Shown here in pieces: positions 13,722 through 24,354 of a DNA stretch of 64,000 nt; position 1 is the stretch's first letter; every line of letters begins with the position of its first letter. Under the pieces are notes generated by a model. That model was not told the origin of the DNA, made no database searches, and saw only the letters and a list, made by a program, of their open reading frames with translations. The translations under genes and the position numbers were made by a program. The stretch spans positions 5,594 through 69,593 of the forward strand of contig CAZHIA010000003.1 of NCBI GenBank assembly GCA_964532425.1, written 5' to 3'. The stretch comes from an uncultured Candidatus Saccharibacteria bacterium (GTDB lineage Bacteria; Patescibacteriota; Doudnabacteria; UBA920).

Positions 13722-13832
13722 GTCTTTTTCCTACCCTCTTCCCTGCTGGAAAACAGCAGAAAGAGGGGTAATACAACAGTTATAGCTATAGCAATTATAC
13801 CATTTATGCCCAAAAAATTCCATGGCTGTTTA

Positions 13833-13877
13833 AAGGCATAAAAAATACCACTTCTCAAATGAAAAGTGGTATTTTTA
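13833..13877 (-). terminator. rho-independent terminator after RNase P RNA
   Basis: Perfect hairpin AAAAATACCACTTTTC/GAGAAGTGGTATTTTT with U-run on the minus strand, immediately 3' of rnpB. Confidence 0.7.
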
Positions 13878-14280
13878 GGCTTCCAGCAAACTCATAAGCC
13901 GAATTCTGTTTGAAACAATCATCTATCTGGGACTGACATTGCTGCCAGCCTCGAGCGGCCTACCAAACTTGGCCTTGCGCTCTGGTAAGGATTTAGCCGT
14001 TTCACCCTCTATGTTGCCATGGAGGATCGCCCTGTACCAGTCGTCCCCCTAAGGAGGACTCCGGTTCAGGGCGCTTTCACCCTTTCGGGTTCAAGCGTTT
14101 CTGTTCGCACCTCTAAGGTTACCCTCGGCGGGCGTTACCCGCTACCATTGTTGATTTTTCTAAAGAGTTGCCCTCTTTAGAACCATCAACCGAGTGTTCG
14201 GACTTTCCTCCCCGCCCTTTGGATTGCATAGAAAGACTATTGTGAATTCTTAGCCTGAGATGTCCCCACGAACTTCCGTA
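13878..14280 (-). ncRNA. rnpB: RNase P RNA (bacterial type A); 5' boundary approximate
   Basis: Minus strand contains GGAGGAAAGUCCGAACAC (P4 5' strand with the conserved bulged U), ACAGAAUUCGGCUUAUGAG (P4 3' strand with covarying GG>AA / CC>UU), AGGGUGAAAGCG and GGGUGAAACGG motifs, and ends at a strong terminator. I could not resolve P1, so the 5' end is uncertain. Confidence 0.8.
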
Positions 14281-14487
14281 TTTCTTTAAGGCTCGTTCTC
14301 TTGCCAAAGCGTCTTTCTTTTCAGCATATGCTTCGTAATATACCAATCTAAAAGGTGTATATGCTTTTGTTGATATTTCCTGACCTGCATTATGTTCAGC
14401 GAACCTACGTTTAAGATCATTAGTTTGGCCAATATAAACAAATCCTTGTTTATTGGCCAGACTTTTGATTACGTAGACATAATGCAT
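14119..14487 (-). CDS. GIY-YIG nuclease family protein (small YhbQ-like); ORF tail reads into the rnpB 5' region
   Basis: MHYVYVIKSLANKQGFVYIGQTNDLKRRFAEHN is the canonical GIY-YIG motif. The domain ends around 14235. The open frame continues with low-complexity sequence through the RNase P RNA 5' part on the same strand. Confidence 0.7.
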   Translation of the reverse strand: MHYVYVIKSLANKQGFVYIGQTNDLKRRFAEHNAGQEISTKAYTPFRLVYYEAYAEKKDALARERALKKYGSSWGHLRLRIHNSLSMQSKGRGGKSEHSVDGSKEGNSLEKSTMVAGNARRG

Positions 14488-14621
14488 ATGCAATCCAAAG
14501 AGCGGGGCGATTGTTCGATTTGCTGAAAGCTTCACAAATCATAGCAAAAATTGGGCATTCTGTCAATATAAGAAAAGCCGCCCCAGAGCATCTGGGACGG
14601 CCACAATGGTGCGCAAACTGA

Positions 14622-14936
14622 CTATGCGCTGGCGGCATGTGCGAGATGATAGCGTCCTCGCCGAGTCGGCTGAGGCCGTTTCTGCTCACTGTGGATCTCG
14701 ATGGTCTTCAGGTATTGGAAACCCGCCTTTTTCAGATTTTCCTTGACGGGATGTTCCAACACCCTGTCATCCATCTGGATCCGGTACGTACCGTCGATGA
14801 GTGCAAAATCGTTGCCGTGGCGTGCCACTTCGAGGTCAGGAACAATGATTCGCAACCGCGAATTTAGGTATCTGAGCTGTTCTCTGGTATTGCCGTTTCG
14901 CAAATCATTTCCTGGCACAAAGCAAATATGCACCAT
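14622..14936 (-). CDS. hypothetical protein (104 aa)
   Basis: Clean ORF co-directional with neighbours (MVHICFVPGNDLRNG...). No family recognised by eye. Confidence 0.4.
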   Translation of the reverse strand: MVHICFVPGNDLRNGNTREQLRYLNSRLRIIVPDLEVARHGNDFALIDGTYRIQMDDRVLEHPVKENLKKAGFQYLKTIEIHSEQKRPQPTRRGRYHLAHAASA

Positions 14937-15020: not shown

Positions 15021-15060
15021 AGCTAAAACACCCCGCCCTTTGCTGCAAAGGGCGGGGTGT
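15021..15060 (-). terminator. rho-independent terminator
   Basis: Hairpin ACACCCCGCCCTTTG/CAAAGGGCGGGGTGT, downstream of the SIMPL-domain gene. Confidence 0.65.
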
Positions 15061-15072
15061 TCGACTATAAAA

Positions 15073-15852
15073 TTATTTCACTTCAAATATCACACTCATG
15101 GTTTCGGTAATATCCTGGCTGCCAGGCTGAATATCAGGAGCGATCGATTTGGCTTCATTCATCGCCGCTCCGCCCCTACCGGCCGCGTAATCCATGGCGT
15201 ATGGGACCGGCCCTGGAAAACTCGTATTAGATTCGGAAACGCTCACGATCTTCCCGAGGGTTAAACCTGCTTCGGAAGCGAGTTCCTGCGCTTTGGTTTT
15301 GGCATTGGCAATAGCCTGTTTGCGGGCTTGCTGCTTGAGATTGTCAGGATCGTTGAAGCTAAAGCTGACATTCTGGATCTCATTCGCTCCGTTATTAACG
15401 GAACCATCCAAAATGGCTTCCAATTTTGTCTGACCCTTGTCAATATCGTGAACTTTAACCGTTACGGTCTGATTGCCCTGGTAGCCGATAATGCGTGCCG
15501 TGCCATTGCTCCAGTCTTGCTGCGGATAGAAGTTGTATTGGGACGTCTTAATATCTTTGGCATCGATCCCTTGCTGTTTGATGAACTCAATAACTTTGTT
15601 AACCTTGGTATTGTTCTGGTCTTTAACATCCTTGGCCGTGGTCCCCTGGGACATGACCCCGATGGTTACAGTAGCCAGATCCGGCGTAGCCTGCACCTTT
15701 CCATCAGCTGAAACAGCCATGGTCTGGGCCGGTTTCCTATTCTTGATCTTGTCATTCAAATCCGTCCCTTTTTGGACAATCAAAATGGCCACAAAAATAA
15801 CGAGTAGTGCGCCCAGGGTGACAACAAGCCACTTTGGCAAGGTTTGATTCAT
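15073..15852 (-). CDS. SIMPL domain (DUF541, BP26/YggE-like) periplasmic protein
   Basis: N-terminal TM/signal (WLVVTLGALLVIFVAILIV), then a beta-rich domain whose pattern resembles SIMPL/DUF541 proteins. Confidence 0.5.
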   Translation of the reverse strand: MNQTLPKWLVVTLGALLVIFVAILIVQKGTDLNDKIKNRKPAQTMAVSADGKVQATPDLATVTIGVMSQGTTAKDVKDQNNTKVNKVIEFIKQQGIDAKDIKTSQYNFYPQQDWSNGTARIIGYQGNQTVTVKVHDIDKGQTKLEAILDGSVNNGANEIQNVSFSFNDPDNLKQQARKQAIANAKTKAQELASEAGLTLGKIVSVSESNTSFPGPVPYAMDYAAGRGGAAMNEAKSIAPDIQPGSQDITETMSVIFEVK

Positions 15853-15972: not shown

Positions 15973-18900
15973 TTATGAGATTGCAATAGTTTTATTGAGC
16001 ACACCTTGCTTGCCGATCGTAACTTGCCCTTCATACACCAATACTGCACGATCTTCGGAAATCTCCTTTACTTTAAGCAGATATGTTCCCGGTTGGCTCT
16101 TGAGGAAGAAAACCCCGTTCGGTTTTGTAACAGCTTTACCCATGACAATAGTGGGGAGAGCCACCGGAGAGAGCTCTAAATACAATCCGCCGACATCTCT
16201 GCTGCCGGCCAGACGACCGAGCAATCTCGCATGGGGAACGACCTTCCTGAGCACAGCAAGCACGACATACACTGCCAGGAATAATCCATTGAGCCAATTT
16301 GGCCTCATTGCAAATACCAGCAATGTCCAAGCCAGCCCCGCCCAAAAAACAAGCTCCAAAGTTATATTCAATATGTGCTCGATGCGGGGATGGAATTTGA
16401 CGATCCTTTTTTTGTCTTCCTGGTTCCAATCAAAGGCCTGCTGATCCATCGGAATATTCGGCGTCAGTGGCGCAGAACCATTGCGAACACTCAATTCTTC
16501 CCCATGGTAGACATTTTCATAGATGCCGTCACTTGATCCTGCCACGTGCACGGAAGGGAAAGTGTAGTTAGTTTTTCTTGCCCGGATTCGGTACAGTCCC
16601 GGCTTATCGAGGAAACCAAACTTCCCGTAGAGATCGGTAATGGCATGATCCACTTCTTTACCGGAACGAACGTCTATTAAATCAACCAATACCGGATCGA
16701 GCGGCTGCTTATTCTTACTGTCATAGACCGTTCCCCAATGCCGCCGGCGGGCACGTATTCCAAGCATGCCGAGCAGTCCATACACCAACCGAAGGAAATA
16801 CAGCCAGATGTCAGAAGCGCTGCCGGCATTCATGGACAAACCATACGTCGAAAGTGATGATTCAAGAGTTAACGTAGTCGGCGCAATAGCAATAGTGGCC
16901 ATTCTTGATGTCAATTCCATTGATCGCAGCTGCGGCATAGACACTATACCGGTTCGACCAGCGGAAATTTTTTCGCCCAGTTGCCGAACCACGTTTGAAG
17001 CAACACTGGTGATTCCTTCAAGAACCGGCGATATTGGAGTAACTGGCGATGCAGGAATACTGCCGGAACCACCAGAAGGCGGCTGCTCTCCAGGTATCTG
17101 CTGAATTGGCGTCGAGGATCCGGCCTGGCTTCCAGGCAAAAGGTTGCCAGTTTGATGAGGAGGATTTTCTGCAGGTGCCACCGGCGGCTGTACCGAGTCC
17201 GGGTCACGGTGAGAAGCGGGTTGATTGCTGACCGGAGCCGGCTCAGGCGGCAGCGGTACTAAGACAGGCTCCCGACCGGTATCTGTCGGCGGCACTGACG
17301 GGGTTTGAGGAGGAGCTTGTGAAACCGGCGGCGTCGCGGGTCCACCACCTCCCCCGCTCGGTGGATTCTGAACAGGTAAATCGCAAGCCGACGTAGTAAT
17401 GTCTAGAGCAGGAGAAAAACCGGTCTCCTGGGCATTAGCATTCCTCGCTTTAACATGGAATTGGTAATGACTGTTGCATGCCAGCCCGGATACTGTTGTG
17501 GTGGTCGCAGATATCCAAGAGGTCGTGGTGCTTGCCGTCATATTTTCGACCTGATATTCCGTCCCAATCGGATTTCCATTAGCATCCCATGTTAGCCCTA
17601 CCGCAGTAGCGGTAACCGTTGTCGTCGAAACATTTCCCGGGACATTCGCGAGCGTGTACGCAAACACGTCCGGCGCATAACCGCTCGTATTGTTTGCGTT
17701 CGTGACGATAGCGTAAAAATCGTACTGGGTATTTGGCACCAGGCTGGTACTGAGCCAGCTTGCGTTTGATGTCGTAGCGCTGCTGCCGGCTGTGGTTCGG
17801 TTAAAGTAGCGGTATGGTTGAGCAGCCAGTCCATACGCTGCATCAGCTGAGCCGGTTAGAGAAACACTAACCGAACTTGCAGTTACCGCAGAAACAGACA
17901 GCGTGCCTGGAACAAGTGAGGTGAGGTTTTGAAATAGAATCGAGTCAGTTACCCTGCCCGAGCTCTGGCCTGAGCCATTCAGGAATTTTGCATAAACCGA
18001 ATACGTACCATTTCCGCAGCTCCCCAAATTTTGGCAAATATCCCATGACTTTGTCGTTACATACGACTCAGGAGTCGCATCGGATAAGTCAGGTAAATTG
18101 GAAACCAGCATCAGCGTGGTTCCCGGCTGACCGGTAAGCTGGAGCGTAACATTCCGAGTCGACGTGATCGGGTCGTTTTGGTTTACATAAACACTGAAGC
18201 CCAGCGTTTCACTGCCTGAAGCCCACGGATCGAATGTGCCTCCCCCGCCAGAAGCAGCAGCTCCTTGAACTGAAACCTGACTGCTCAGCAGTGCTTCGCC
18301 GACATTTCCCGCATTGTCGAACACTCTAACTTTATAGTGGTACGTACCCGCTGGAAGGTTAGTGTCCGTCCAAGTTGTTGCCGCAGTAGATCCGGAGTTG
18401 TCCCAATTATCCGTATTGGAAAATACATACGGGGCAACACTCAATCCGGATTCAGCATCCTGGGAACCCGAAACAGCAATCGTAACAGAACCAGTACTCG
18501 TGCTGACTAAGGACAACGTTCCCGAATTCGGTAAAATAGTATCTATCCTGAAGGCAACCAGCCCATTATTTGCCACAGACCAAGGAGATTCCGCCCCTGC
18601 CTGATCCAAAGTTTTGACTCTCCAATAATAACCACTAGCCGAATCCGGCAGGACTTGCGCGCTTGAGCCGACGGAATAGAAACCGGATCCGGCATTTTGA
18701 CCGACGACAAAAGTTTTATCCCCTTGCGCGGCAAGAGCAGACGTATAGTCCACGGACAGTCCGCTAAAATCACTCGTCGTGGAAATTTGCATGCGGTAAC
18801 CGACTAAATCGGACGCGTCCGGATCAGTCAGGTTAAAATGCAAATCCGGTTGAGCAAGATTTATCCAGCTCCCATTGACCAACGGGCCGTTACCGAGGTA

Positions 18901-21900
18901 TGCGGGACTGTTTGGATTTTGATTACAGGGGGAAGCCGGCGGACTGACCATTGCGCTGTACGCGGTTTCGACTCCGTCATGGTTGCGGGCTTTGACGTGA
19001 AAAGAATATGAGTTTCCACATGACAAGCCGGCAAAAACAGTGCTCGTTGCCGTAACCCAACCTGAATTGGACGTAGCACTTGAGTTCTCGGCATAATATT
19101 CGGTTCCAGGAGGGTTTCCGTTCGTGTCCCAGGTTAAACGGACCGATGTGGCAGAAAGTACGGTCGTAGTGGCATTGGTTGGAATCTGTGCAGCTGTATA
19201 AATACTGCTCGTTGCGGTACTTGCCGAATTACCGGCGATATCAACCACCTGGGATTGAAACACGTATTTGGTGTTCGGCGTGAGGCCGCCACTGGTCCAC
19301 GTCGCGCCTCCCGGCGTACTCGTCGCCGAATTCGTCAGGTTGATAAAGTTATACGAAGCTATCCCGGAAAGATTATCCGAAGCTCCGGACACCACAACAT
19401 CCACATGGTCCGGATTCAGCCAATTAAACGTAATGGAACCGGGGTTCGGAGGAGTCGAGTCGAGTTTGAATGCTATACTTCCCGAATTAGCAAGGCTAAA
19501 CGGTGACGTTCCGCCGTTGCCATCAATCGCCTGCACCTCCCAATAGTACGAGCTATTATCGGACAAAACCTGCCCAGGCCCACCAATAGCATACGTTCCT
19601 GTACCAGCCAGCTGCCCCACGGTGAAACCATAGGAACCCTGCGGATTAAGCGCTGACGTGTAATCGAGCTGCGAAGAAGAAAAATTACTATTGGTATCTA
19701 TCCGAATGCGATACTTCACTGAATCCGCCCCATCAGGATCAGAAAGGTTGAATGTAAAATATGGGGACGTACTTGCAGTCCAGGTATTGGTCACGAACAG
19801 GTTCGGACCAAGCGAGCTCGGCGAATTCGGCGCATTGTTGGGAATGCCGGTGGTAATGGTTTTGTCTGTTCCATAGACCGACCCCTTTAAGTTCATGGCA
19901 AACATACGGACATGGTAGGTTGTTGACGGAGCCAGTCCGGTTAATGACGAAATGAAAGTCCCGCTCGCATTCGTTATCCCATTGCTCGCCACAGAACCGG
20001 CAGTGTCATACAACTTAAACTCCGCAACAGCGGTATTTCCGCCCCCGTTATTCGCGGAAATATTTAAACGATATTTTGCGTAAGGCGTTGTGTTGACGAA
20101 ATTAAAAGAACGCGATTCTCCATTTGCCCAGCTGACTTGGTTGGAAATTGATTGCAAGCTCACCCAAGCGCTTCCGTCCCATGCTTCAAAAGTCCAGTTG
20201 CGAGGAGAGTCGCCGCCGCCGGAATAATTATTTCCGGTTATCGTATACTTGTTGACGACAGTCGAAACAGGAAAATCGTATTCTAAATCATAACTCATCC
20301 CTTGGTTGGATGACCAGTATGTGTTCGGATTACCATCAAAAGCATTTGAGGCAGAACCGATGTTTGCTTTTGACGCGGCAGCGGTACCAGTCTCAAGAAT
20401 AGCCAGATTTACATTCGGCACGGACGGGTTTGGATAGGTTGCCCACACGCTCCCGTAACCAGTGATCTGATAAAATGGTAAATCTAAAATTGTGCCGTGG
20501 CCAGTGGCGGTTGTAGACAGAATGTCGGTAACGTCATCGGAGGTGACACTCGGTACTGACGCCGGATAGAGCGAGCCAGCCGCTCCAGCGCCGTAACCAA
20601 CCCCTCCGGAAACACTGCGTGAGACGCTGTTATTATAGACGGAGCTTAACACTGAAATCCTACCGCCGCTTCCACCACCGCCGTTATTGCAACCGTTCCC
20701 CCCGTTTGAAGTTAAACTACCGGAGCCGGCAAAGTTTGTGGTGGTGATGAAAATACTCCCGCCGCTTCCACCACCCGGACTCCAACAATTGAATGCGTTA
20801 GAACCGTTTGCAGAAATTACTCCATCAACGGTAGTTGTGCCGGTTACACTGAAAATCGCCGCACCGCCACCCGCACCACCTCCGTCATTCGAACTGCCGA
20901 ACTGACTTGAGTTCCCCCCACCACTCCCAAGATCGACTGGATTCACCAAGGACCCATAGGGGCTACCAGCATTCACCGCAGACCCGTTACCACCAGAACC
21001 ACCATATGACCCTCCGGCATTATTGTCACGAGGAGTTATTTGGGAGGTTCCCGGCCCCTGCCCGCCGACGTATCCGCGGCCGTTAACGTTTACCGAACCA
21101 CTGCCGCTTACGGTAAGGTTTCCGTTTACCTGCCAATTCAATTTATAGAGACTCGCCGAACCAGTTGTGGCGGTTGTGTTATACGCATGGGTCAACATAC
21201 CGTCAATTGTCACATTATTATACGTTCTACTCGCACCCAGTGCCGCCACCACAAGAGTTGTGCCCGAAGGGATTGTAATGTTCTGATTCTGCCTCAGCAC
21301 CGCAAGGTCACCACCACTGTCAACAACAGTGCCGGACCAAGTCAGGGACGAATAGGAGAACGATGTGCCCGATTGCGCGTAGTATGCCGAGTTGCTTAAG
21401 ATTGTCAGGACAGTTGATGTAGATGAGGATCCAACCAGGTAAACGGCTGCATTATTTTTTAGAGTCACACTATCCATCACAAAAACAGGCAACGGAGTCT
21501 TTCCATACCCACGCTCGTCTGTCGCACCAGATGAATTCAGGTTGTTGTTATCGAGAAGCAAGTCTCCATTTGCTTGGGCTGCGGCTTTCTTGTACAGCGT
21601 TCCACTGCCGCCATAGTTTGGCCATGTGGTTCCGCTGTAATAGGCATAGCTCACCGAAGACACATCTGTCGTGTACTTTATCGCAATACGACCCCCGCTC
21701 CCGTTACCAGAGGCGTTTCCGCACGCATTACCGCCACGCGCGGTGATTGCACCGTTACCCGCCAGAGTTCTCGTCACCACATTAACGCTTCCCCCGCTGC
21801 CGCCACCGGCATCCCAGCAGCTAAACGCATTCCCCCCATTAGCAGAGATAGCACCACTGACGGTCGTAGTAGCCGCTACGTTCAGAATGATTGAGCCTCC

Positions 21901-24354
21901 GCCGCTCCCGCCACCATCGTTCGAACCGCCGAACGCGGTAATATTACCACCGCCGCTCCCGAGATCGGTAGGGTTAGTTATCGAACCGTATGTACCGGTC
22001 GCATTCACCTGGCTGCCGTTTCCCCCACTGCCTCCATAGGAGGCCCCGGCATTAAAATTGTGCGGCGTTATTTGAGCTGTCCCCGGACCATATCCTCCGG
22101 TAAAACCTTTCGAGTCAGCCGAAATAGAGCCGCTGACAGTTAAGCTGCCGCCAATATTTGCATTAATCCTTCCTCCGATTGTGCCCGAGGTTGCAACACT
22201 GTGAGTAACTACTGCTCCGGAATATACAATAAAATCCCCGTTTGTACTTAATGGCGCAGACAGGGCGTCATAATTAAAATTGAGGACTGACGCAACCCCT
22301 CCACCCACGACTCCGAGCGTCAGTGAGTTTATTGCAGTCGGACCGTTTATATTGACAGTCGCAGCTGACGCTATCACCGCATCATCTGTTGGTCCAGGGA
22401 CGCTACCGCTGCTCCAGTTTCCACCGTCTTCCCAATTATTCGTACCTGCCCCGCCGGTCCATGAGACCGCTGAATTATAGGCATCGGCGCGAACTCCACC
22501 AAAATCAAAAACCATGTGATGATCTCCCGTACGGAGGTCAAGAAATTTTACGGTAGCCACACTATCACATTGCCACTGGGGAACGTACACGGAATGGTCA
22601 GGACGCTCCTGGACACTAACCGCCTGATCGCCGCAGGCCAAGCTCTCAAACTGCATATCGGCCACGGTATCCTGATCAGCCGGCGAGATCACTAAGTCGG
22701 AAACTCCCGTGGTCATGAATTCGATATCCCAATACTGACCAGTTATCGGATGGGAATATACGTTCAGTACCGAAATTTCTACTGTCGGGTCGACAATGAC
22801 CGGATACGAGGCATCCTTGAGCCACTCGGCGTCCGGGATAACAGTGAGCAAATTATTCTTAAGCTTTAGTTCCAGCTTCTGGCTGACACGGCCAGCACTA
22901 TCGCTCATTTGTGGAGCGGTGATTGAATACAGTTTGTAGAGCGATTGGCCGAGATATCCTTTTTTGTAGAGGTCAATTCTGTTTGGTGAAGCTTGAAGGA
23001 AGTCGTAAGTATCCATATTCAGCAAATACCGGAATTTACGGGGATGGTGAGAATTTTTCAATACAATAGATTCTTTCAAACTTCTTGCAGAGATGTCGTA
23101 CTTCACATCAGTATTCTCAAAAACATCCGAATACGTTACCGTATCACCGGACCTTGTTCCACCTGCTGCTGCCCGAGAACCAATCATAAGCATGGACAGC
23201 ACACTTGGCGCTGGCGACGACCCTTCCGCAATGGTAATCGGTTGTGACAAATCACTCGGTAAGGCAACGTCCGCGGTTTTGGTGGAACGGTGGATCAGCG
23301 AAAATTTCTGCTGGTCTCTGAGTCGATCCTGCAGTGTGTCCGAATTCTGCACTACCCCTTCCTCAGCGACCGGTTCAGAGTATTCGGCTTTAATTTTAAC
23401 TCCATCGATGGAAAGCAGTGCATCGCTCTCATCTCCCTCTCGTAAGGAACCGGGAATGAATCGCATACGAACAGTACTGCTTCCAATTTTCGTCAAAAAA
23501 GGACGAGGAAGCTCATATTCGATAAAGCCACCCATGGCGGCGTTGGAAAATCCGCCATCCAAATTGACCACTCCTGCTTTTTTCCAGGTCTGGTCCTGGT
23601 CAAAATATTCGACTTGCAACTTGGCACCAGGCAGCGGTACAGAAGCCATCGAAATATCAATCTTTAACGTTCGTAGGTAGTCAAGATTTGGAAGGGTTGT
23701 CGAGGAGTCCTCCTGGTGAAAACCAGAAAATTCAAGATCGTAGGCAGTGGCAGAATCCTCCTGGTTTTCATTCGGACTTTGTGTGACTGATGGCTCAGTT
23801 GTGGTTGCTAATACGGACGACTCCGAGCTGCTCGGAGCGGCCTTGTCATCAGAGACGACAGGGTCTGAAATTTGTGGCACAAGATCTGCGCCAACCTCTA
23901 CCGGACCAGAACTGGCAACAGTACTTGTCGCAGCGAGGTTTGCCAATTCTGATTCAATACCAAACGCCTGAACAGCCTGAGTAACATCATCCCCAGCAGA
24001 AGATTTTTCTTCCAGATTGCCAAGAAAACTCAGCTGAGCAGAATTCGACGAAGTAAACATTGATGAATCAGCGTCTGCACCAAGCTCAGTTACGAGAGCA
24101 TTATTTACATTCTTCCAAGCAAATTTTTGGCCACCAGCCCCTGCTACTGCGGTCACCACTTGCGGAACGAATCGCAAGCTGTACAGACTATTGTTTTGGT
24201 CACCTGGAGCGTCAGATTGGCTGGTCGTATCGGCTTTCACGAGGATAACACCAGACTGAAATAATTGCGCAACAAAAAAAACGGCCACCAGAATTCTGGT
24301 TGCTAAAACGGCTAACCTGGGGTAAGTTTTATTTCTGGTTTTTATCAGTTTCAA
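15973..24354 (-). CDS. giant secreted/surface protein (2793 aa) with signal peptide, Gly-rich beta-helix-like repeats, FN3/Ig-like repeats, F5/8 type C (discoidin) domain, Pro-rich stalk and C-terminal TM anchor region
   Basis: N-terminal MKLIKTRNKTYPRLAVLATRILVAVFFVAQLF. Repeated GGSGGNGS / NGGNAFSCW tracts. NAFDGNPNTYWSS discoidin-like motif. Duplicated ~110-aa modules (SSLGPNLFVTNTW... / AYLGNGPLVNGSW...). PPSGGGGGPATPPVSQAPPQTPSVPP linker. C-terminal hydrophobic helices and a carboxypeptidase-regulatory-like segment (VLVDLIDVRSGKEVDHAITDLYGKFGF). Confidence 0.85.
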   Translation of the reverse strand: MKLIKTRNKTYPRLAVLATRILVAVFFVAQLFQSGVILVKADTTSQSDAPGDQNNSLYSLRFVPQVVTAVAGAGGQKFAWKNVNNALVTELGADADSSMFTSSNSAQLSFLGNLEEKSSAGDDVTQAVQAFGIESELANLAATSTVASSGPVEVGADLVPQISDPVVSDDKAAPSSSESSVLATTTEPSVTQSPNENQEDSATAYDLEFSGFHQEDSSTTLPNLDYLRTLKIDISMASVPLPGAKLQVEYFDQDQTWKKAGVVNLDGGFSNAAMGGFIEYELPRPFLTKIGSSTVRMRFIPGSLREGDESDALLSIDGVKIKAEYSEPVAEEGVVQNSDTLQDRLRDQQKFSLIHRSTKTADVALPSDLSQPITIAEGSSPAPSVLSMLMIGSRAAAGGTRSGDTVTYSDVFENTDVKYDISARSLKESIVLKNSHHPRKFRYLLNMDTYDFLQASPNRIDLYKKGYLGQSLYKLYSITAPQMSDSAGRVSQKLELKLKNNLLTVIPDAEWLKDASYPVIVDPTVEISVLNVYSHPITGQYWDIEFMTTGVSDLVISPADQDTVADMQFESLACGDQAVSVQERPDHSVYVPQWQCDSVATVKFLDLRTGDHHMVFDFGGVRADAYNSAVSWTGGAGTNNWEDGGNWSSGSVPGPTDDAVIASAATVNINGPTAINSLTLGVVGGGVASVLNFNYDALSAPLSTNGDFIVYSGAVVTHSVATSGTIGGRINANIGGSLTVSGSISADSKGFTGGYGPGTAQITPHNFNAGASYGGSGGNGSQVNATGTYGSITNPTDLGSGGGNITAFGGSNDGGGSGGGSIILNVAATTTVSGAISANGGNAFSCWDAGGGSGGSVNVVTRTLAGNGAITARGGNACGNASGNGSGGRIAIKYTTDVSSVSYAYYSGTTWPNYGGSGTLYKKAAAQANGDLLLDNNNLNSSGATDERGYGKTPLPVFVMDSVTLKNNAAVYLVGSSSTSTVLTILSNSAYYAQSGTSFSYSSLTWSGTVVDSGGDLAVLRQNQNITIPSGTTLVVAALGASRTYNNVTIDGMLTHAYNTTATTGSASLYKLNWQVNGNLTVSGSGSVNVNGRGYVGGQGPGTSQITPRDNNAGGSYGGSGGNGSAVNAGSPYGSLVNPVDLGSGGGNSSQFGSSNDGGGAGGGAAIFSVTGTTTVDGVISANGSNAFNCWSPGGGSGGSIFITTTNFAGSGSLTSNGGNGCNNGGGGSGGRISVLSSVYNNSVSRSVSGGVGYGAGAAGSLYPASVPSVTSDDVTDILSTTATGHGTILDLPFYQITGYGSVWATYPNPSVPNVNLAILETGTAAASKANIGSASNAFDGNPNTYWSSNQGMSYDLEYDFPVSTVVNKYTITGNNYSGGGDSPRNWTFEAWDGSAWVSLQSISNQVSWANGESRSFNFVNTTPYAKYRLNISANNGGGNTAVAEFKLYDTAGSVASNGITNASGTFISSLTGLAPSTTYHVRMFAMNLKGSVYGTDKTITTGIPNNAPNSPSSLGPNLFVTNTWTASTSPYFTFNLSDPDGADSVKYRIRIDTNSNFSSSQLDYTSALNPQGSYGFTVGQLAGTGTYAIGGPGQVLSDNSSYYWEVQAIDGNGGTSPFSLANSGSIAFKLDSTPPNPGSITFNWLNPDHVDVVVSGASDNLSGIASYNFINLTNSATSTPGGATWTSGGLTPNTKYVFQSQVVDIAGNSASTATSSIYTAAQIPTNATTTVLSATSVRLTWDTNGNPPGTEYYAENSSATSNSGWVTATSTVFAGLSCGNSYSFHVKARNHDGVETAYSAMVSPPASPCNQNPNSPAYLGNGPLVNGSWINLAQPDLHFNLTDPDASDLVGYRMQISTTSDFSGLSVDYTSALAAQGDKTFVVGQNAGSGFYSVGSSAQVLPDSASGYYWRVKTLDQAGAESPWSVANNGLVAFRIDTILPNSGTLSLVSTSTGSVTIAVSGSQDAESGLSVAPYVFSNTDNWDNSGSTAATTWTDTNLPAGTYHYKVRVFDNAGNVGEALLSSQVSVQGAAASGGGGTFDPWASGSETLGFSVYVNQNDPITSTRNVTLQLTGQPGTTLMLVSNLPDLSDATPESYVTTKSWDICQNLGSCGNGTYSVYAKFLNGSGQSSGRVTDSILFQNLTSLVPGTLSVSAVTASSVSVSLTGSADAAYGLAAQPYRYFNRTTAGSSATTSNASWLSTSLVPNTQYDFYAIVTNANNTSGYAPDVFAYTLANVPGNVSTTTVTATAVGLTWDANGNPIGTEYQVENMTASTTTSWISATTTTVSGLACNSHYQFHVKARNANAQETGFSPALDITTSACDLPVQNPPSGGGGGPATPPVSQAPPQTPSVPPTDTGREPVLVPLPPEPAPVSNQPASHRDPDSVQPPVAPAENPPHQTGNLLPGSQAGSSTPIQQIPGEQPPSGGSGSIPASPVTPISPVLEGITSVASNVVRQLGEKISAGRTGIVSMPQLRSMELTSRMATIAIAPTTLTLESSLSTYGLSMNAGSASDIWLYFLRLVYGLLGMLGIRARRRHWGTVYDSKNKQPLDPVLVDLIDVRSGKEVDHAITDLYGKFGFLDKPGLYRIRARKTNYTFPSVHVAGSSDGIYENVYHGEELSVRNGSAPLTPNIPMDQQAFDWNQEDKKRIVKFHPRIEHILNITLELVFWAGLAWTLLVFAMRPNWLNGLFLAVYVVLAVLRKVVPHARLLGRLAGSRDVGGLYLELSPVALPTIVMGKAVTKPNGVFFLKSQPGTYLLKVKEISEDRAVLVYEGQVTIGKQGVLNKTIAIS

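Follow-up and report, generated by a model that had tools for sequence, protein, structure and literature searches.

A GIY-YIG nuclease gene nested in helix P3 of an RNase P RNA gene, as one copy of a hairpin-closed gene cassette in stable-RNA genes of Patescibacteria

How is a small GIY-YIG nuclease gene arranged with respect to the RNase P RNA gene (rnpB) into which its reading frame runs? This question was raised by a 64,000-nucleotide stretch of DNA from an uncultured Candidatus Saccharibacteria bacterium (hereafter, the window). The original prediction, made from the sequence alone, described a GIY-YIG ORF immediately upstream of rnpB on the same strand, with no stop codon until position 14119, inside the 5' region of the RNA. 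It proposed that either both are co-transcribed, with the RNA processed out of the 3' part of the mRNA, or that the nuclease gene is a recent insertion next to rnpB, small GIY-YIG genes being often mobile and associated with structured RNA genes.

The observation itself was confirmed, because all the elements described are present. On the minus strand, an ORF starts at an ATG at 14487 and remains open until a TAA at 14121-14119 (122 aa), and its residues 1-70 match the Pfam family GIY-YIG (PF01541) at E=2e-16, with 60.5 bits against a cut-off of 22.6. The Rfam model RNaseP_bact_a (RF00010) hits 14193-13879 on the minus strand with 104.2 bits against a gathering score of 100, a hit that is marginal because the model cannot span the ORF, and the ORF overlaps the covariance model hit by 75 nt. 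A 5' end of this hit downstream of 14119 had been set beforehand as the result that would refute the observation, and it was not found. However, the 5' boundary given by the model is itself wrong. The Rfam alignment lacks the universal 5' strand of P4, GAGGAAAGUCC, which lies upstream of the hit, its P1 and P3 are full of non-canonical pairs, and it mis-assigns a lineage-specific hairpin as P3. The real 5' strands of P1, P2 and P3 lie upstream of the ORF, at 14530-14487, directly after a near-consensus promoter, and pair across the ORF with the 3' strand of P3 and with the 3' end of the RNA (Table 1). The ORF is thus inside rnpB, not upstream of it, and fills the loop of an extended P3 of 21 bp.

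Table 1. Coordinates of the features identified at the rnpB locus of the window. L numbers designate loci from other assemblies.
Position	Strand	Feature	Sequence	Supporting evidence
14576..14602	-	Terminator of the preceding gene, which isolates the rnpB transcription unit		
14538..14566	-	rnpB promoter; the only promoter for both the RNA and the ORF	-35 TTGACA, 17-nt spacer, TG-extended -10 TATGAT	11 of 12 matches; the same TTGACA-17-TAnnnT lies just 5' of P1 in nested (L001, L004, L130, L049, L058) and empty (L035, L110, L125) rnpB loci
13879..14533	-	Full RNase P RNA gene (rnpB), about 655 nt including the nested cassette		The unconstrained MFE fold recovers P1, P2 and the long P3 (z = -10.3)
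14519..14530	-	P1, 5' strand	GCUUUCAGCAAA	Pairs with 13890-13879; 97.9% paired in the covariation analysis, with double changes in 6 of 12 pairs
14509..14516	-	P2, 5' strand	GAACAAUC	Pairs with 13920-13913; 95.2% paired, with double changes in 4 of 8 pairs
14487..14507	-	P3/cassette stem, 5' arm; its last base is the A of the ORF's AUG	CCCCGCUCUUUGGAUUGCAUA	Inverted repeat of 21 nt, 95% complementary, 256 nt between arms; duplex of -40.0 kcal/mol against -14.2 ± 3.2 for shuffled strands; covariation
14119..14487	-	GIY-YIG ORF as it reads in this genome, 122 aa; residues 1-85 (14487-14233) are the domain, residues 86-122 are read-through encoded by the P3 3' arm, P4, P5 and the P5.1-like hairpin		Profile match and comparison with homologues
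14226..14236	-	Site of the lost stop codon	window ...GUCUUUCUAUGCAAUCC; L001 ...CUCUUUGAUACAAUCC; L004 ...GUCUUUAAUACAAUCC	Direct sequence comparison with relatives
14210..14230	-	P3/cassette stem, 3' arm, abutting GAGGAAAGTCC	UAUGCAAUCCAAAGGGCGGGG	Inverted repeat, duplex energy and covariation
14200..14210	-	P4, 5' strand (universal core motif), absent from the Rfam alignment	GAGGAAAGUCC	Motif search; Rfam alignment
14150..14190	-	Lineage-specific hairpin between P5 and P7 (P5.1-like), mis-assigned as P3 by Rfam		Inverted repeat; Rfam alignment; MFE fold
13913..13920	-	P2, 3' strand	GAUUGUUU	Motif search; covariation
13895..13909	-	P4, 3' strand	ACAGAAUUCGGCUUA	Motif search; Rfam alignment
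13879..13890	-	P1, 3' strand	UUUGCUGGAAGC	Inverted repeat; covariation
13841..13876	-	Intrinsic terminator of rnpB		Hairpin of -20.2 kcal/mol followed by a U-run

We next evaluated whether these long-range helices are maintained. In the window, the duplex of P1 and P2 across the ORF has an energy of -23.6 kcal/mol, against -9.5 ± 2.5 for shuffled strands, and both P4 strands (GAGGAAAGUCC ... ACAGAAnnCGGCUUA, with the bulged U) are present and invariant in all relatives. In an alignment of eight sequences, P1 and P2 are 96.8% paired and 10 of 20 pairs show double changes; none of 500 shuffles reached the observed value, and slid controls gave 32-51%. Because MAFFT alignment of the stem arms slid unrelated stem sequences out of register, the formal covariation count was used only for P1 and P2, and P3 was counted on fixed-register 42-mers. 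In this closing stem, 132 of 133 cells are paired and 16 of 19 positions are compensatory, a value not reached by any of 2000 shuffles. The arms were picked as the best complement in each locus and these statistics carry some ascertainment bias, although the positions of the arms are fixed by the ends of the ORF and by P4. P1 and P2 could not be assigned with confidence in L007/L008.

The same nesting recurs in at least 10 independent Patescibacteria assemblies, from different studies and lineages, and was seen in L001, L004, L007/8, L130, L049, L058 and L085, as well as in L151, L180, L191, L193 and L196. Although the window comes from a metagenome-assembled contig, this recurrence makes an assembly chimera or other sequencing artefact hardly credible as the origin of the arrangement. 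Conversely, close relatives have an empty P3, and only about 4 of the roughly 105 sampled Patescibacteria rnpB loci in which the P4 motif was located carry an ORF. The empty loci L035, L110 and L125 share the P1 and P2 sequences of the window but have a short P3: L125 reads CCCAGCTCT-ATTC-AAAGGGCTGGG, while the window reads CCCCGCTCTTTGG-ATTGCATA[ORF]TATGCAAT-CCAAAGGGCGGGG. These empty-site relatives, which align base for base with the upstream segment of the window, score 108-134 bits with the Rfam model, whereas nested relatives score only 51-71 bits because the model cannot bridge the ORF. The interpretation in the original prediction was only partly supported. Co-transcription is supported, because the only promoter precedes both the RNA and the ORF, as is membership of the gene in a mobile-looking family associated with structured RNA genes. 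The proposed geometry, with a co-directional gene upstream of an rnpB that starts near 14193, rests on the Rfam alignment and on the single upstream promoter, and is contradicted by the P1, P2 and P3 strands that precede the ORF and covary with their 3' partners; we consider it very unlikely. The insertion is also not recent, because it is shared by lineages whose ORFs have saturated synonymous divergence.

The ORF is under purifying selection, with dN values of 0.13-0.5 and a saturated dS; since dS is saturated in most pairs, it can only be stated that dN is much smaller than dS. The GIY, YIG, Arg and Glu motifs are conserved, and residues Y3, V4, Y5, Y18, G20, R28, H32 and E52 are invariant in 12 sequences. 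Homologues are 83-86 aa long and stop at the tip of the stem, whereas the window has lost this stop, which explains the read-through into the ribozyme core. The loss is a peculiarity of this genome, whose copy may be a freshly damaged ORF, or the missing stop may be a local assembly error, as no independent assembly of this genome was found. For annotation, the 5' boundary of this rnpB should be 14533, not 14193, and the 122-aa ORF is an 85-aa protein with a read-through tail.

GIY-YIG enzymes such as I-TevI are classic intron-encoded homing endonucleases, and structural RNAs of CPR bacteria are often invaded by introns (PMC8172020, PMC11270868), which suggested that the insert might be a group I or II, or otherwise spliced, intron. 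This is very unlikely. The 256 nt between the stem arms are filled by the 255-nt domain-coding region, leaving no room for a ribozyme, and a permissive Rfam scan (E<=1) of 13800-14650 returned the RNase P hit and three sub-threshold chance hits, with no intron family. Besides, the protein is a bare catalytic domain, without the linker and DNA-binding domain of I-TevI (83 aa against about 245 aa), and in CPR rRNA all GIY-YIG ORFs are likewise in non-intron insertions (PMC11270868). It is also very unlikely that this rnpB is a pseudogene killed by the insertion, with RNase P activity supplied by a second rnpB or a protein-only enzyme, although the Rfam score is marginal and our analysis of this genome is confined to the window. 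All core elements (both strands of P4, P1, P2, and P8-P12 and the remaining 3' helices) are intact, the promoter and terminator are conserved, and P1, P2 and P3 keep pairing through compensatory changes across lineages whose ORFs are saturated at synonymous sites, which is not expected of a dead gene. Additionally, CPR genomes are reported to carry one, often diverged, rnpB (PMC8172020).

Together, our results indicate, with good though not complete confidence, that the window carries a Patescibacteria rnpB with an 83-85-codon single-domain GIY-YIG gene nested in the apical loop of P3. What the analysis establishes directly is the order of promoter, P1, P2 and P3 5' strands, ORF, P3 3' strand, P4 and rest of the ribozyme; the 21-bp stem whose arms directly flank the ORF, its 3' arm beginning at the stop codon in relatives; the conservation of helices and ORF in many independent genomes; and the empty, short P3 of close relatives. 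The remainder is inferred from sequence alone: that the whole unit is transcribed as one RNA from which the ORF is expressed, that the closing stem stacks on P3, a peripheral helix, holding both halves of the ribozyme in register so that the catalytic core folds normally, and that the RNA is active on pre-tRNA and the protein is a nuclease. By analogy with the RNase III-excised intervening sequences (IVS) of bacterial rRNA, the roughly 20-bp perfect duplex is probably an RNase III site, and cleavage there would release the ORF-bearing loop and leave a two-piece RNase P RNA held together by P1, P2 and the base of P3. In the window, however, a fragment released in this way would be a non-stop mRNA, and translation of the full transcript would unwind P4.

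Alternatively, the insertion might simply be retained, the mature RNA being the full 655-nt molecule with a 256-nt coding expansion segment on P3, and a subpopulation of these RNAs, or nascent transcripts, being translated. This variant differs only in the processing step and remains possible, although we hold it only tentatively. P3 is peripheral and CPR RNase P RNAs tolerate large helix extensions (PMC8172020), as also seen in the expansions of L007, L001 and L004, and ORF-less long hairpins of the same type persist in rnpB helices of L117, L039 and L058. Moreover, in several copies (the window, L133 and L049) the start and stop of the ORF lie within the stem arms, or the ORF reads through them, which is awkward if the stem is cut. 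On the other hand, a perfect duplex of about 20 bp maintained by compensatory changes is longer than is needed merely to close a loop, and matches RNase III substrates such as the stems of rRNA IVS (PMC11270868), but none of this is direct evidence.

More broadly, the stem plus ORF behaves as a cassette. About 50 of 70 metagenomic ORFs of the family are bracketed by stems of 14-32 bp, and relatives of the window's copy have stems of 19-27 bp. In rnpB, besides the tip of P3, the cassette is found at the tips of P9 (L185), P12 (L152) and P15 (L047, L133); it also occurs in 16S rRNA (L157, L184) and 23S rRNA (L198) genes, and 18 of 70 ORFs lie at most 130 nt 5' of a co-directional tRNA or tmRNA gene. 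The arms begin with CCCC(N)C and end with G(N)GGGG in nearly all of the 50 copies, and 13 of these 50 are flanked by direct repeats of 4 nt or more, against 0.86 expected, although none is present at the window's copy or at other rnpB-P3 copies. In our interpretation, the cassette appears to be a promoter-less mobile gene that rides on highly expressed stable-RNA transcription units. It is possible, although rather less likely than not, that the stem and the 83-aa ORF constitute an autonomous, minimal mobile element of a kind not yet described, TIR-like and inserting at G-run junctions and hairpin tips of stable-RNA genes, with excision and integration putatively catalysed by its own product. 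Its closing stem would make it harmless at the RNA level, either by clamping the host helix or by allowing RNase III excision; these organisms would then have, respectively, a ribozyme that carries a translatable mRNA in one of its helices or a naturally two-piece RNase P ribozyme. ORF-less derivatives of the cassette would in this view be the source of many of the unexplained helix expansions in CPR RNase P RNA and rRNA.

The closest described systems are the GIY-YIG-encoding, non-intron insertions in rRNA genes of CPR/Patescibacteria (Tsurumaki et al. 2024, PMC11270868, which credits the first report of GIY-YIG families in these insertions to its reference 2). They occur in the same phylum, carry a small GIY-YIG ORF without a group I or II intron, are located at the tip or base of a stem-loop of an essential stable RNA and are sporadically distributed, with the RNase III-cleaved IVS as proposed analogue. 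That work does not mention rnpB, the host in the window, nor does it describe the closing 20-bp stem, the shared C-run/G-run arm motif, the tRNA and tmRNA leader sites or the flanking direct repeats. Likewise, the rRNA IVS of Salmonella, Leptospira, Coxiella and others, excised by RNase III without religation, are extra segments at a helix tip closed by a long duplex, are sporadically distributed and sometimes carry an ORF, with the host RNA still functional; in our case excision is only inferred, the host is a ribozyme instead of rRNA, and the ORF is a predicted nuclease, not a four-helix-bundle protein of the 23S_rRNA_IVP family. The diverged RNase P RNAs of CPR bacteria (Lui, Nielsen and Arkin 2021, PMC8172020) are type A-like, with large helix extensions and scores below the Rfam thresholds, but that study reports extended or missing helices and not a protein-coding gene inside the RNA. 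Intron-encoded GIY-YIG homing endonucleases share the catalytic domain, residence in a structured-RNA gene and a mobile-looking distribution, whereas the insertion sites found here are not one conserved target sequence but hairpin tips and G-run junctions. The nearest solved relatives of the protein are single-domain UPF0213/COG2827 proteins of unknown function (BH0048, 1ZG2; EF2693, 1YWL; the E. coli YhbQ type), similar in size, architecture and sequence (E=1e-5 to 1ZG2); these are ordinary free-standing genes, for which no nesting in RNA genes or closing hairpin is known to have been described. Finally, small TIR-bounded transposons and MITEs, and REP/RAYT-type hairpin elements, also have inverted terminal arms with a conserved end motif, ORF-less hairpin derivatives and short flanking direct repeats, the latter seen here in only 13 of 50 copies, but here the arm sequences covary to keep pairing rather than being conserved, no GIY-YIG-only transposase is known, and the window's own copy shows no target-site duplication.

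We found no report of a bacterial rnpB with a protein-coding gene inside one of its helices, in a full-text literature search whose coverage was incomplete. If confirmed, this arrangement explains why rnpB is missing or below threshold in many annotations of Patescibacteria genomes, and it gives a natural test case for how much foreign RNA a ribozyme helix tolerates and for whether a fragmented RNase P RNA works in vivo. It would also extend the phenomenon of CPR rRNA insertions to other stable RNAs, pointing to a single cassette family with a defined hairpin architecture as the cause, and suggests a new lifestyle for a minimal GIY-YIG nuclease gene, parasitising stable-RNA transcription units.

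We considered that the ORF lacks a Shine-Dalgarno sequence and might be translated leaderless after cleavage of the stem, but this idea was discarded because these signals are weak for most long ORFs in the window (median -1.2 kcal/mol). A tblastn search did not find a second copy within the window. Among apparently free-standing homologues, L132, L134 and L135 first looked like ordinary genes located between protein genes, but they still carry the closing stem, whereas L136, on a 1.3-Mb contig, has none.

The open reading frame on the minus strand begins at an ATG and lacks a stop codon for 122 codons, and its first 70 residues match the Pfam GIY-YIG profile (PF01541, E=2e-16, 60.5 bits against a cut-off of 22.6). 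The bacterial type A RNase P model of Rfam hits the same strand at 104.2 bits, against a gathering score of 100, and the RNA is terminated by a hairpin of -20.2 kcal/mol followed by a U-run. A scan of the whole 64-kb window at the gathering threshold found no other RNA gene, not even a tRNA. The ORF thus runs 75 nt into the covariance-model hit, whose 5' end does not lie downstream of the ORF stop codon, the outcome that had been set beforehand as a refutation. The observation of the original prediction, that the frame of the GIY-YIG gene runs into a co-directional RNase P RNA gene, is therefore confirmed.

The Rfam alignment, however, is defective in two ways, because it has no counterpart for the universal P4 5' strand GAGGAAAGUCC and because its 'P1' and 'P3' are built from a local hairpin, with many non-canonical pairs. 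This 18-bp hairpin lies between P5 and P7 (P5.1-like, unusual for type A), and its mis-assignment as P3 is why the window still scores just above the gathering threshold; a similar element occurs in three related loci, L035, L110 and L125 (L numbers designate the loci compared here). The P4 strand GAGGAAAGTCC is in fact present, upstream of the hit. A search for inverted repeats found two long-range pairings, a 21-nt, 95%-complementary stem whose arms flank the ORF, with 256 nt between them, and a second pairing that includes both strands of P1. Read as RNA, the promoter (11 of 12 matches) is followed by the 5' strands of P1, P2 and P3, the ORF, the P3 3' arm, the P4 5' strand, the remaining helices, the 3' strands of P2, P4 and P1, and the terminator. 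The boundary given by Rfam is thus wrong and the ORF is inside the RNA, so that the original interpretation is only partly supported: co-transcription and mobility hold, as inferences, whereas the geometry, with the gene immediately upstream of or inserted next to rnpB, was wrong.

Coordinates of the features in the window
Feature	Position	Strand	Remarks
Terminator of the previous gene	14602-14576	-	precedes the promoter
Promoter	14566-14538	-	TTGACA-17-TG-TATGAT
rnpB, corrected annotation	14533-13879	-	655 nt
Second long-range pairing	14537-14519 with 13890-13872	-	inverted-repeat search
P1 5' strand	14530-14519	-	
P2 5' strand	14516-14509	-	
GIY-YIG cassette	14507-14210	-	in the P3 tip
P3 5' arm	14507-14487	-	last base is the A of the AUG
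GIY-YIG ORF	14487-14119	-	ATG at 14487, TAA at 14121-14119; properly about 85 aa, with a genome-specific read-through to 14119
P3 3' arm	14230-14210	-	
P4 5' strand	14210-14200	-	
Rfam type A RNase P hit	14193-13879	-	
P5.1-like hairpin	14190-14150	-	mis-assigned as P3 by Rfam
P2 3' strand	13920-13913	-	
P4 3' strand	13909-13895	-	
P1 3' strand	13890-13879	-	
rnpB terminator	13876-13841	-	
ORF-less hairpin with cassette-type arms	15031-15057		right after the stop of the SIMPL-domain gene
SIMPL-domain gene	15073-15852	-	
2793-aa ORF	15973-24354	-	probable giant surface protein

Duplex energies for the strands that must pair across the ORF are far from chance, with -40.0 kcal/mol for P3, against -14.2 ± 3.2 for shuffled partners, and -23.6 for P1/P2, against -9.5 ± 2.5. 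Likewise, an unconstrained MFE fold of the 655-nt RNA (-249.7 kcal/mol, z = -10.3) forms P1, P2 and the long P3 closing the ORF, and folds the rest of the ribozyme separately.

The ORF has 39 homologue clusters, mostly of 83-86 aa, and the only two that carry a source name are Patescibacteria. Their contexts showed the same nested architecture in independent assemblies, namely in L001 (GCA_964348995.1), L004 (GCA_023484515.1), L007/L008 and L130. The rnpB of L007/L008 (2470-3540) is more than 1 kb long and has several further large expansions, with 677 nt between the two P4 strands, in addition to the nested ORF. A scan of species-representative genomes, using an rnpB motif that lies outside the insertion, gave 120 loci, almost all from Patescibacteria, of which three carry an ORF directly 5' of P4 (L049, L058 and L085) and one carries an ORF elsewhere in rnpB (L047); a metagenome scan added L151, L180, L191, L193 and L196. 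Having been found in more than 10 independent assemblies, the arrangement is not an assembly artefact. Empty rnpB genes score 108-134 bits with the Rfam model, whereas nested ones score 51-71 bits, below the gathering cut-off.

The closest empty-site relatives of the window (L035, L110 and L125) share its P1 and P2 sequences and have a short P3. L125 reads CCCAGCTCT-ATTC-AAAGGGCTGGG, whereas the window reads CCCCGCTCTTTGG-ATTGCATA[ORF]TATGCAAT-CCAAAGGGCGGGG, including the same U·G wobble. In an alignment of five ORF-deleted nested genes and three empty ones, 96.8% of the cells in P1 and P2 are paired and 10 of 20 pairs show changes on both sides; 0 of 500 shuffles reach the observed values, and slid controls give 32-51%. 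In the closing stem, counted in fixed register over seven loci, 132 of 133 cells are paired and 16 of 19 positions show compensatory double changes; for instance, L049 has CCCCCCCACTAAAATTTAT and L058 has CCCCCCACTTTCTCAAATC, against CCCCGCTCTTTGGATTGCA in the window. None of 2000 shuffles reach the observed value, although this statistic is partly ascertained, because the arms were identified by their complementarity; their positions are nonetheless fixed by the ORF ends and by P4. All nested and empty loci have a TTGACA-17-TAnnnT promoter at the equivalent place, just 5' of P1. Given the compensatory maintenance of P1, P2 and P3 and the intact core, it is unlikely that this rnpB is a pseudogene.

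Synonymous sites of the ORF are saturated in all comparisons (dS above 1.6 or not computable), while dN is 0.13-0.5, and the GIY (YVY), YIG, Arg, His and Glu positions are invariant; the protein is therefore under purifying selection. It is a bare catalytic domain, and the nearest solved structures by sequence are the UPF0213 proteins BH0048 (1ZG2, E=1e-5) and EF2693 (1YWL), not multi-domain homing endonucleases. In relatives, the ORF ends at a stop codon at or inside the 3' arm, as in L001 (...CTCTTTGATACAATCC) and L004 (...GTCTTTAATACAATCC). The window has ...GTCTTTCTATGCAATCC, which removes the stop, and translation would then continue for 37 codons through the P3 3' arm, P4, P5 and the P5.1-like hairpin. 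This is the feature noticed in the original prediction and it is specific to this genome, although similar read-throughs occur sporadically elsewhere (L133, P0006). The nested ORF of L058 (403-650, in the orientation analysed) appears frameshifted, with two tblastn segments in different frames, while its 20-bp closing stem is perfect; either the ORF is decaying while the stem is retained or this is an assembly error. The insertion is not a group I or II intron, because the loop is filled by the ORF, because no intron model matches at E<=1, and because in CPR rRNA genes all GIY-YIG ORFs are reported to lie in insertions that are neither group I nor group II introns (PMC11270868).

Among 70 ORFs located in 80 metagenomic loci, about 50 are bracketed by stems of 14-32 bp, where shuffled controls reach at most 10-17, and the arms begin with CCCC(N)CAC and end with GTG(N)GGGG. 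Besides P3, where the nested loci named above carry it, the cassette occurs at rnpB P15 in L047 and L133, and tentatively, as judged by its flanks, in L154; in the P12 loop of L152 (208-849, 304.5 bits) and at P9 of L185 (1398-2049, 245.1 bits). The last two are high-scoring type A RNase P RNAs in which, unlike at the P3 site, Rfam bridges the ORF. The cassette is also found in 16S rRNA (L157 and L184) and in 23S rRNA (L198 and the near-identical loci L197, L203 and L209). In addition, 18 of the 70 ORFs lie at most 130 nt upstream of a co-directional tRNA or tmRNA, often at 1-25 nt. The cassette sits 1-25 nt upstream of co-directional tRNA genes in L009 (2400-2900), L141, L144, L158, L161, L167, L173, L190 and L218, while in L201 (962-1569) the cassette lies 4 nt upstream of a tmRNA gene (tag peptide ANYQPALAYA). 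Some copies lie between protein genes but keep the stem (L132 and L135). At least half of the classified copies are thus in or abutting stable-RNA genes.

Of 50 unique copies, 13 have direct repeats of 4 nt or more abutting the outer ends of the inverted arms, against 0.86 expected by permutation, which is a signature resembling that of transposons with TIR and TSD. These comprise repeats of 4-5 nt (TATGA, CTTA, TTGA, TAAA, TTTA and CACA) in L132, L135, L146, L164, L182, L183, L187 and L212, together with five tRNA-adjacent copies that have 7-nt repeats. In tRNA-adjacent copies, the GGGG of the 3' arm doubles as tRNA nucleotides 1-4, and nucleotides 5-11 are duplicated upstream, on the other side of the cassette, which looks like insertion into the 5' part of the tRNA with the tRNA then regenerated. 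The rnpB-P3 copies, including that of the window, have no such repeat, and their G-run merges with G|GAGGAAAGUCC.

Hairpins with the same arms but without an ORF also occur. The rnpB of L117 has the same hairpin, with a stem of roughly 21 bp (CCCCGCTCTTTTAG...), in three different helices; L039 has a 16-bp hairpin at P15, with arms identical to those of the P15 cassettes of L047 and L133, and L058 has one at the P5.1 position. These hairpins may explain some of the 'helix extensions' of CPR RNase P RNAs. In the window, a perfect 13-bp hairpin, CCCCGCCCTTTGC·GCAAAGGGCGGGG, has arms with the same sequence as the P3 arms and is followed by TGTTTT, so that it acts as the terminator of the SIMPL-domain gene. 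Its 12-mer occurs in the 64-kb window only there and in the P3 arms (4 matches against 0.39 expected), and it may be an ORF-less relic of the cassette.

Our results establish the nesting, the single promoter, the closing stem, the conservation of the long-range helices of the ribozyme, purifying selection on the protein, sporadic presence and absence among relatives, and multiple host sites, all of them hairpin tips or RNA 5' junctions. From these we infer, without direct evidence, that the unit is co-transcribed with rnpB, that the stem stacks on the peripheral P3, so that the core folds, and that the ORF is expressed from the precursor. By analogy with rRNA intervening sequences, it is feasible that the duplex of about 20 bp is cut by RNase III, which would give a two-piece RNase P RNA held together by P1, P2 and the base of P3; alternatively, the insertion is retained as an expansion segment, and we give roughly equal weight to both outcomes. 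The flanking repeats and the conserved arm ends suggest DNA-level mobility, which might be catalysed by the putative nuclease.

The closest described systems are the GIY-YIG-bearing non-intron insertions of CPR rRNA genes (PMC11270868), the classical rRNA intervening sequences excised by RNase III, and the diverged, extended RNase P RNAs of CPR (PMC8172020). Full-text literature searches, in a collection that is incomplete, found no report of a protein gene nested in a bacterial RNase P RNA, nor of the hairpin-closed cassette architecture or its tRNA and tmRNA sites. CPR stable-RNA insertions with GIY-YIG ORFs are a known class of element, whereas the host RNA appears to be new and the architecture newly defined.

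Cassette copies in L137 (1501-3254) and L138 (1501-3474) lie next to bAvd and a reverse transcriptase (RVT_1), that is, beside a diversity-generating retroelement; the arms of the L138 copy (CCCCGCCCTTTG/CAAAGGGCGGGG) nearly equal the P3 arms of the window, although no rnpB motif is nearby. Close to rnpB in the window there is also a 2793-aa ORF with repetitive Gly/Ser-rich and fibronectin-like segments and C-terminal transmembrane helices, which is probably a giant surface protein.
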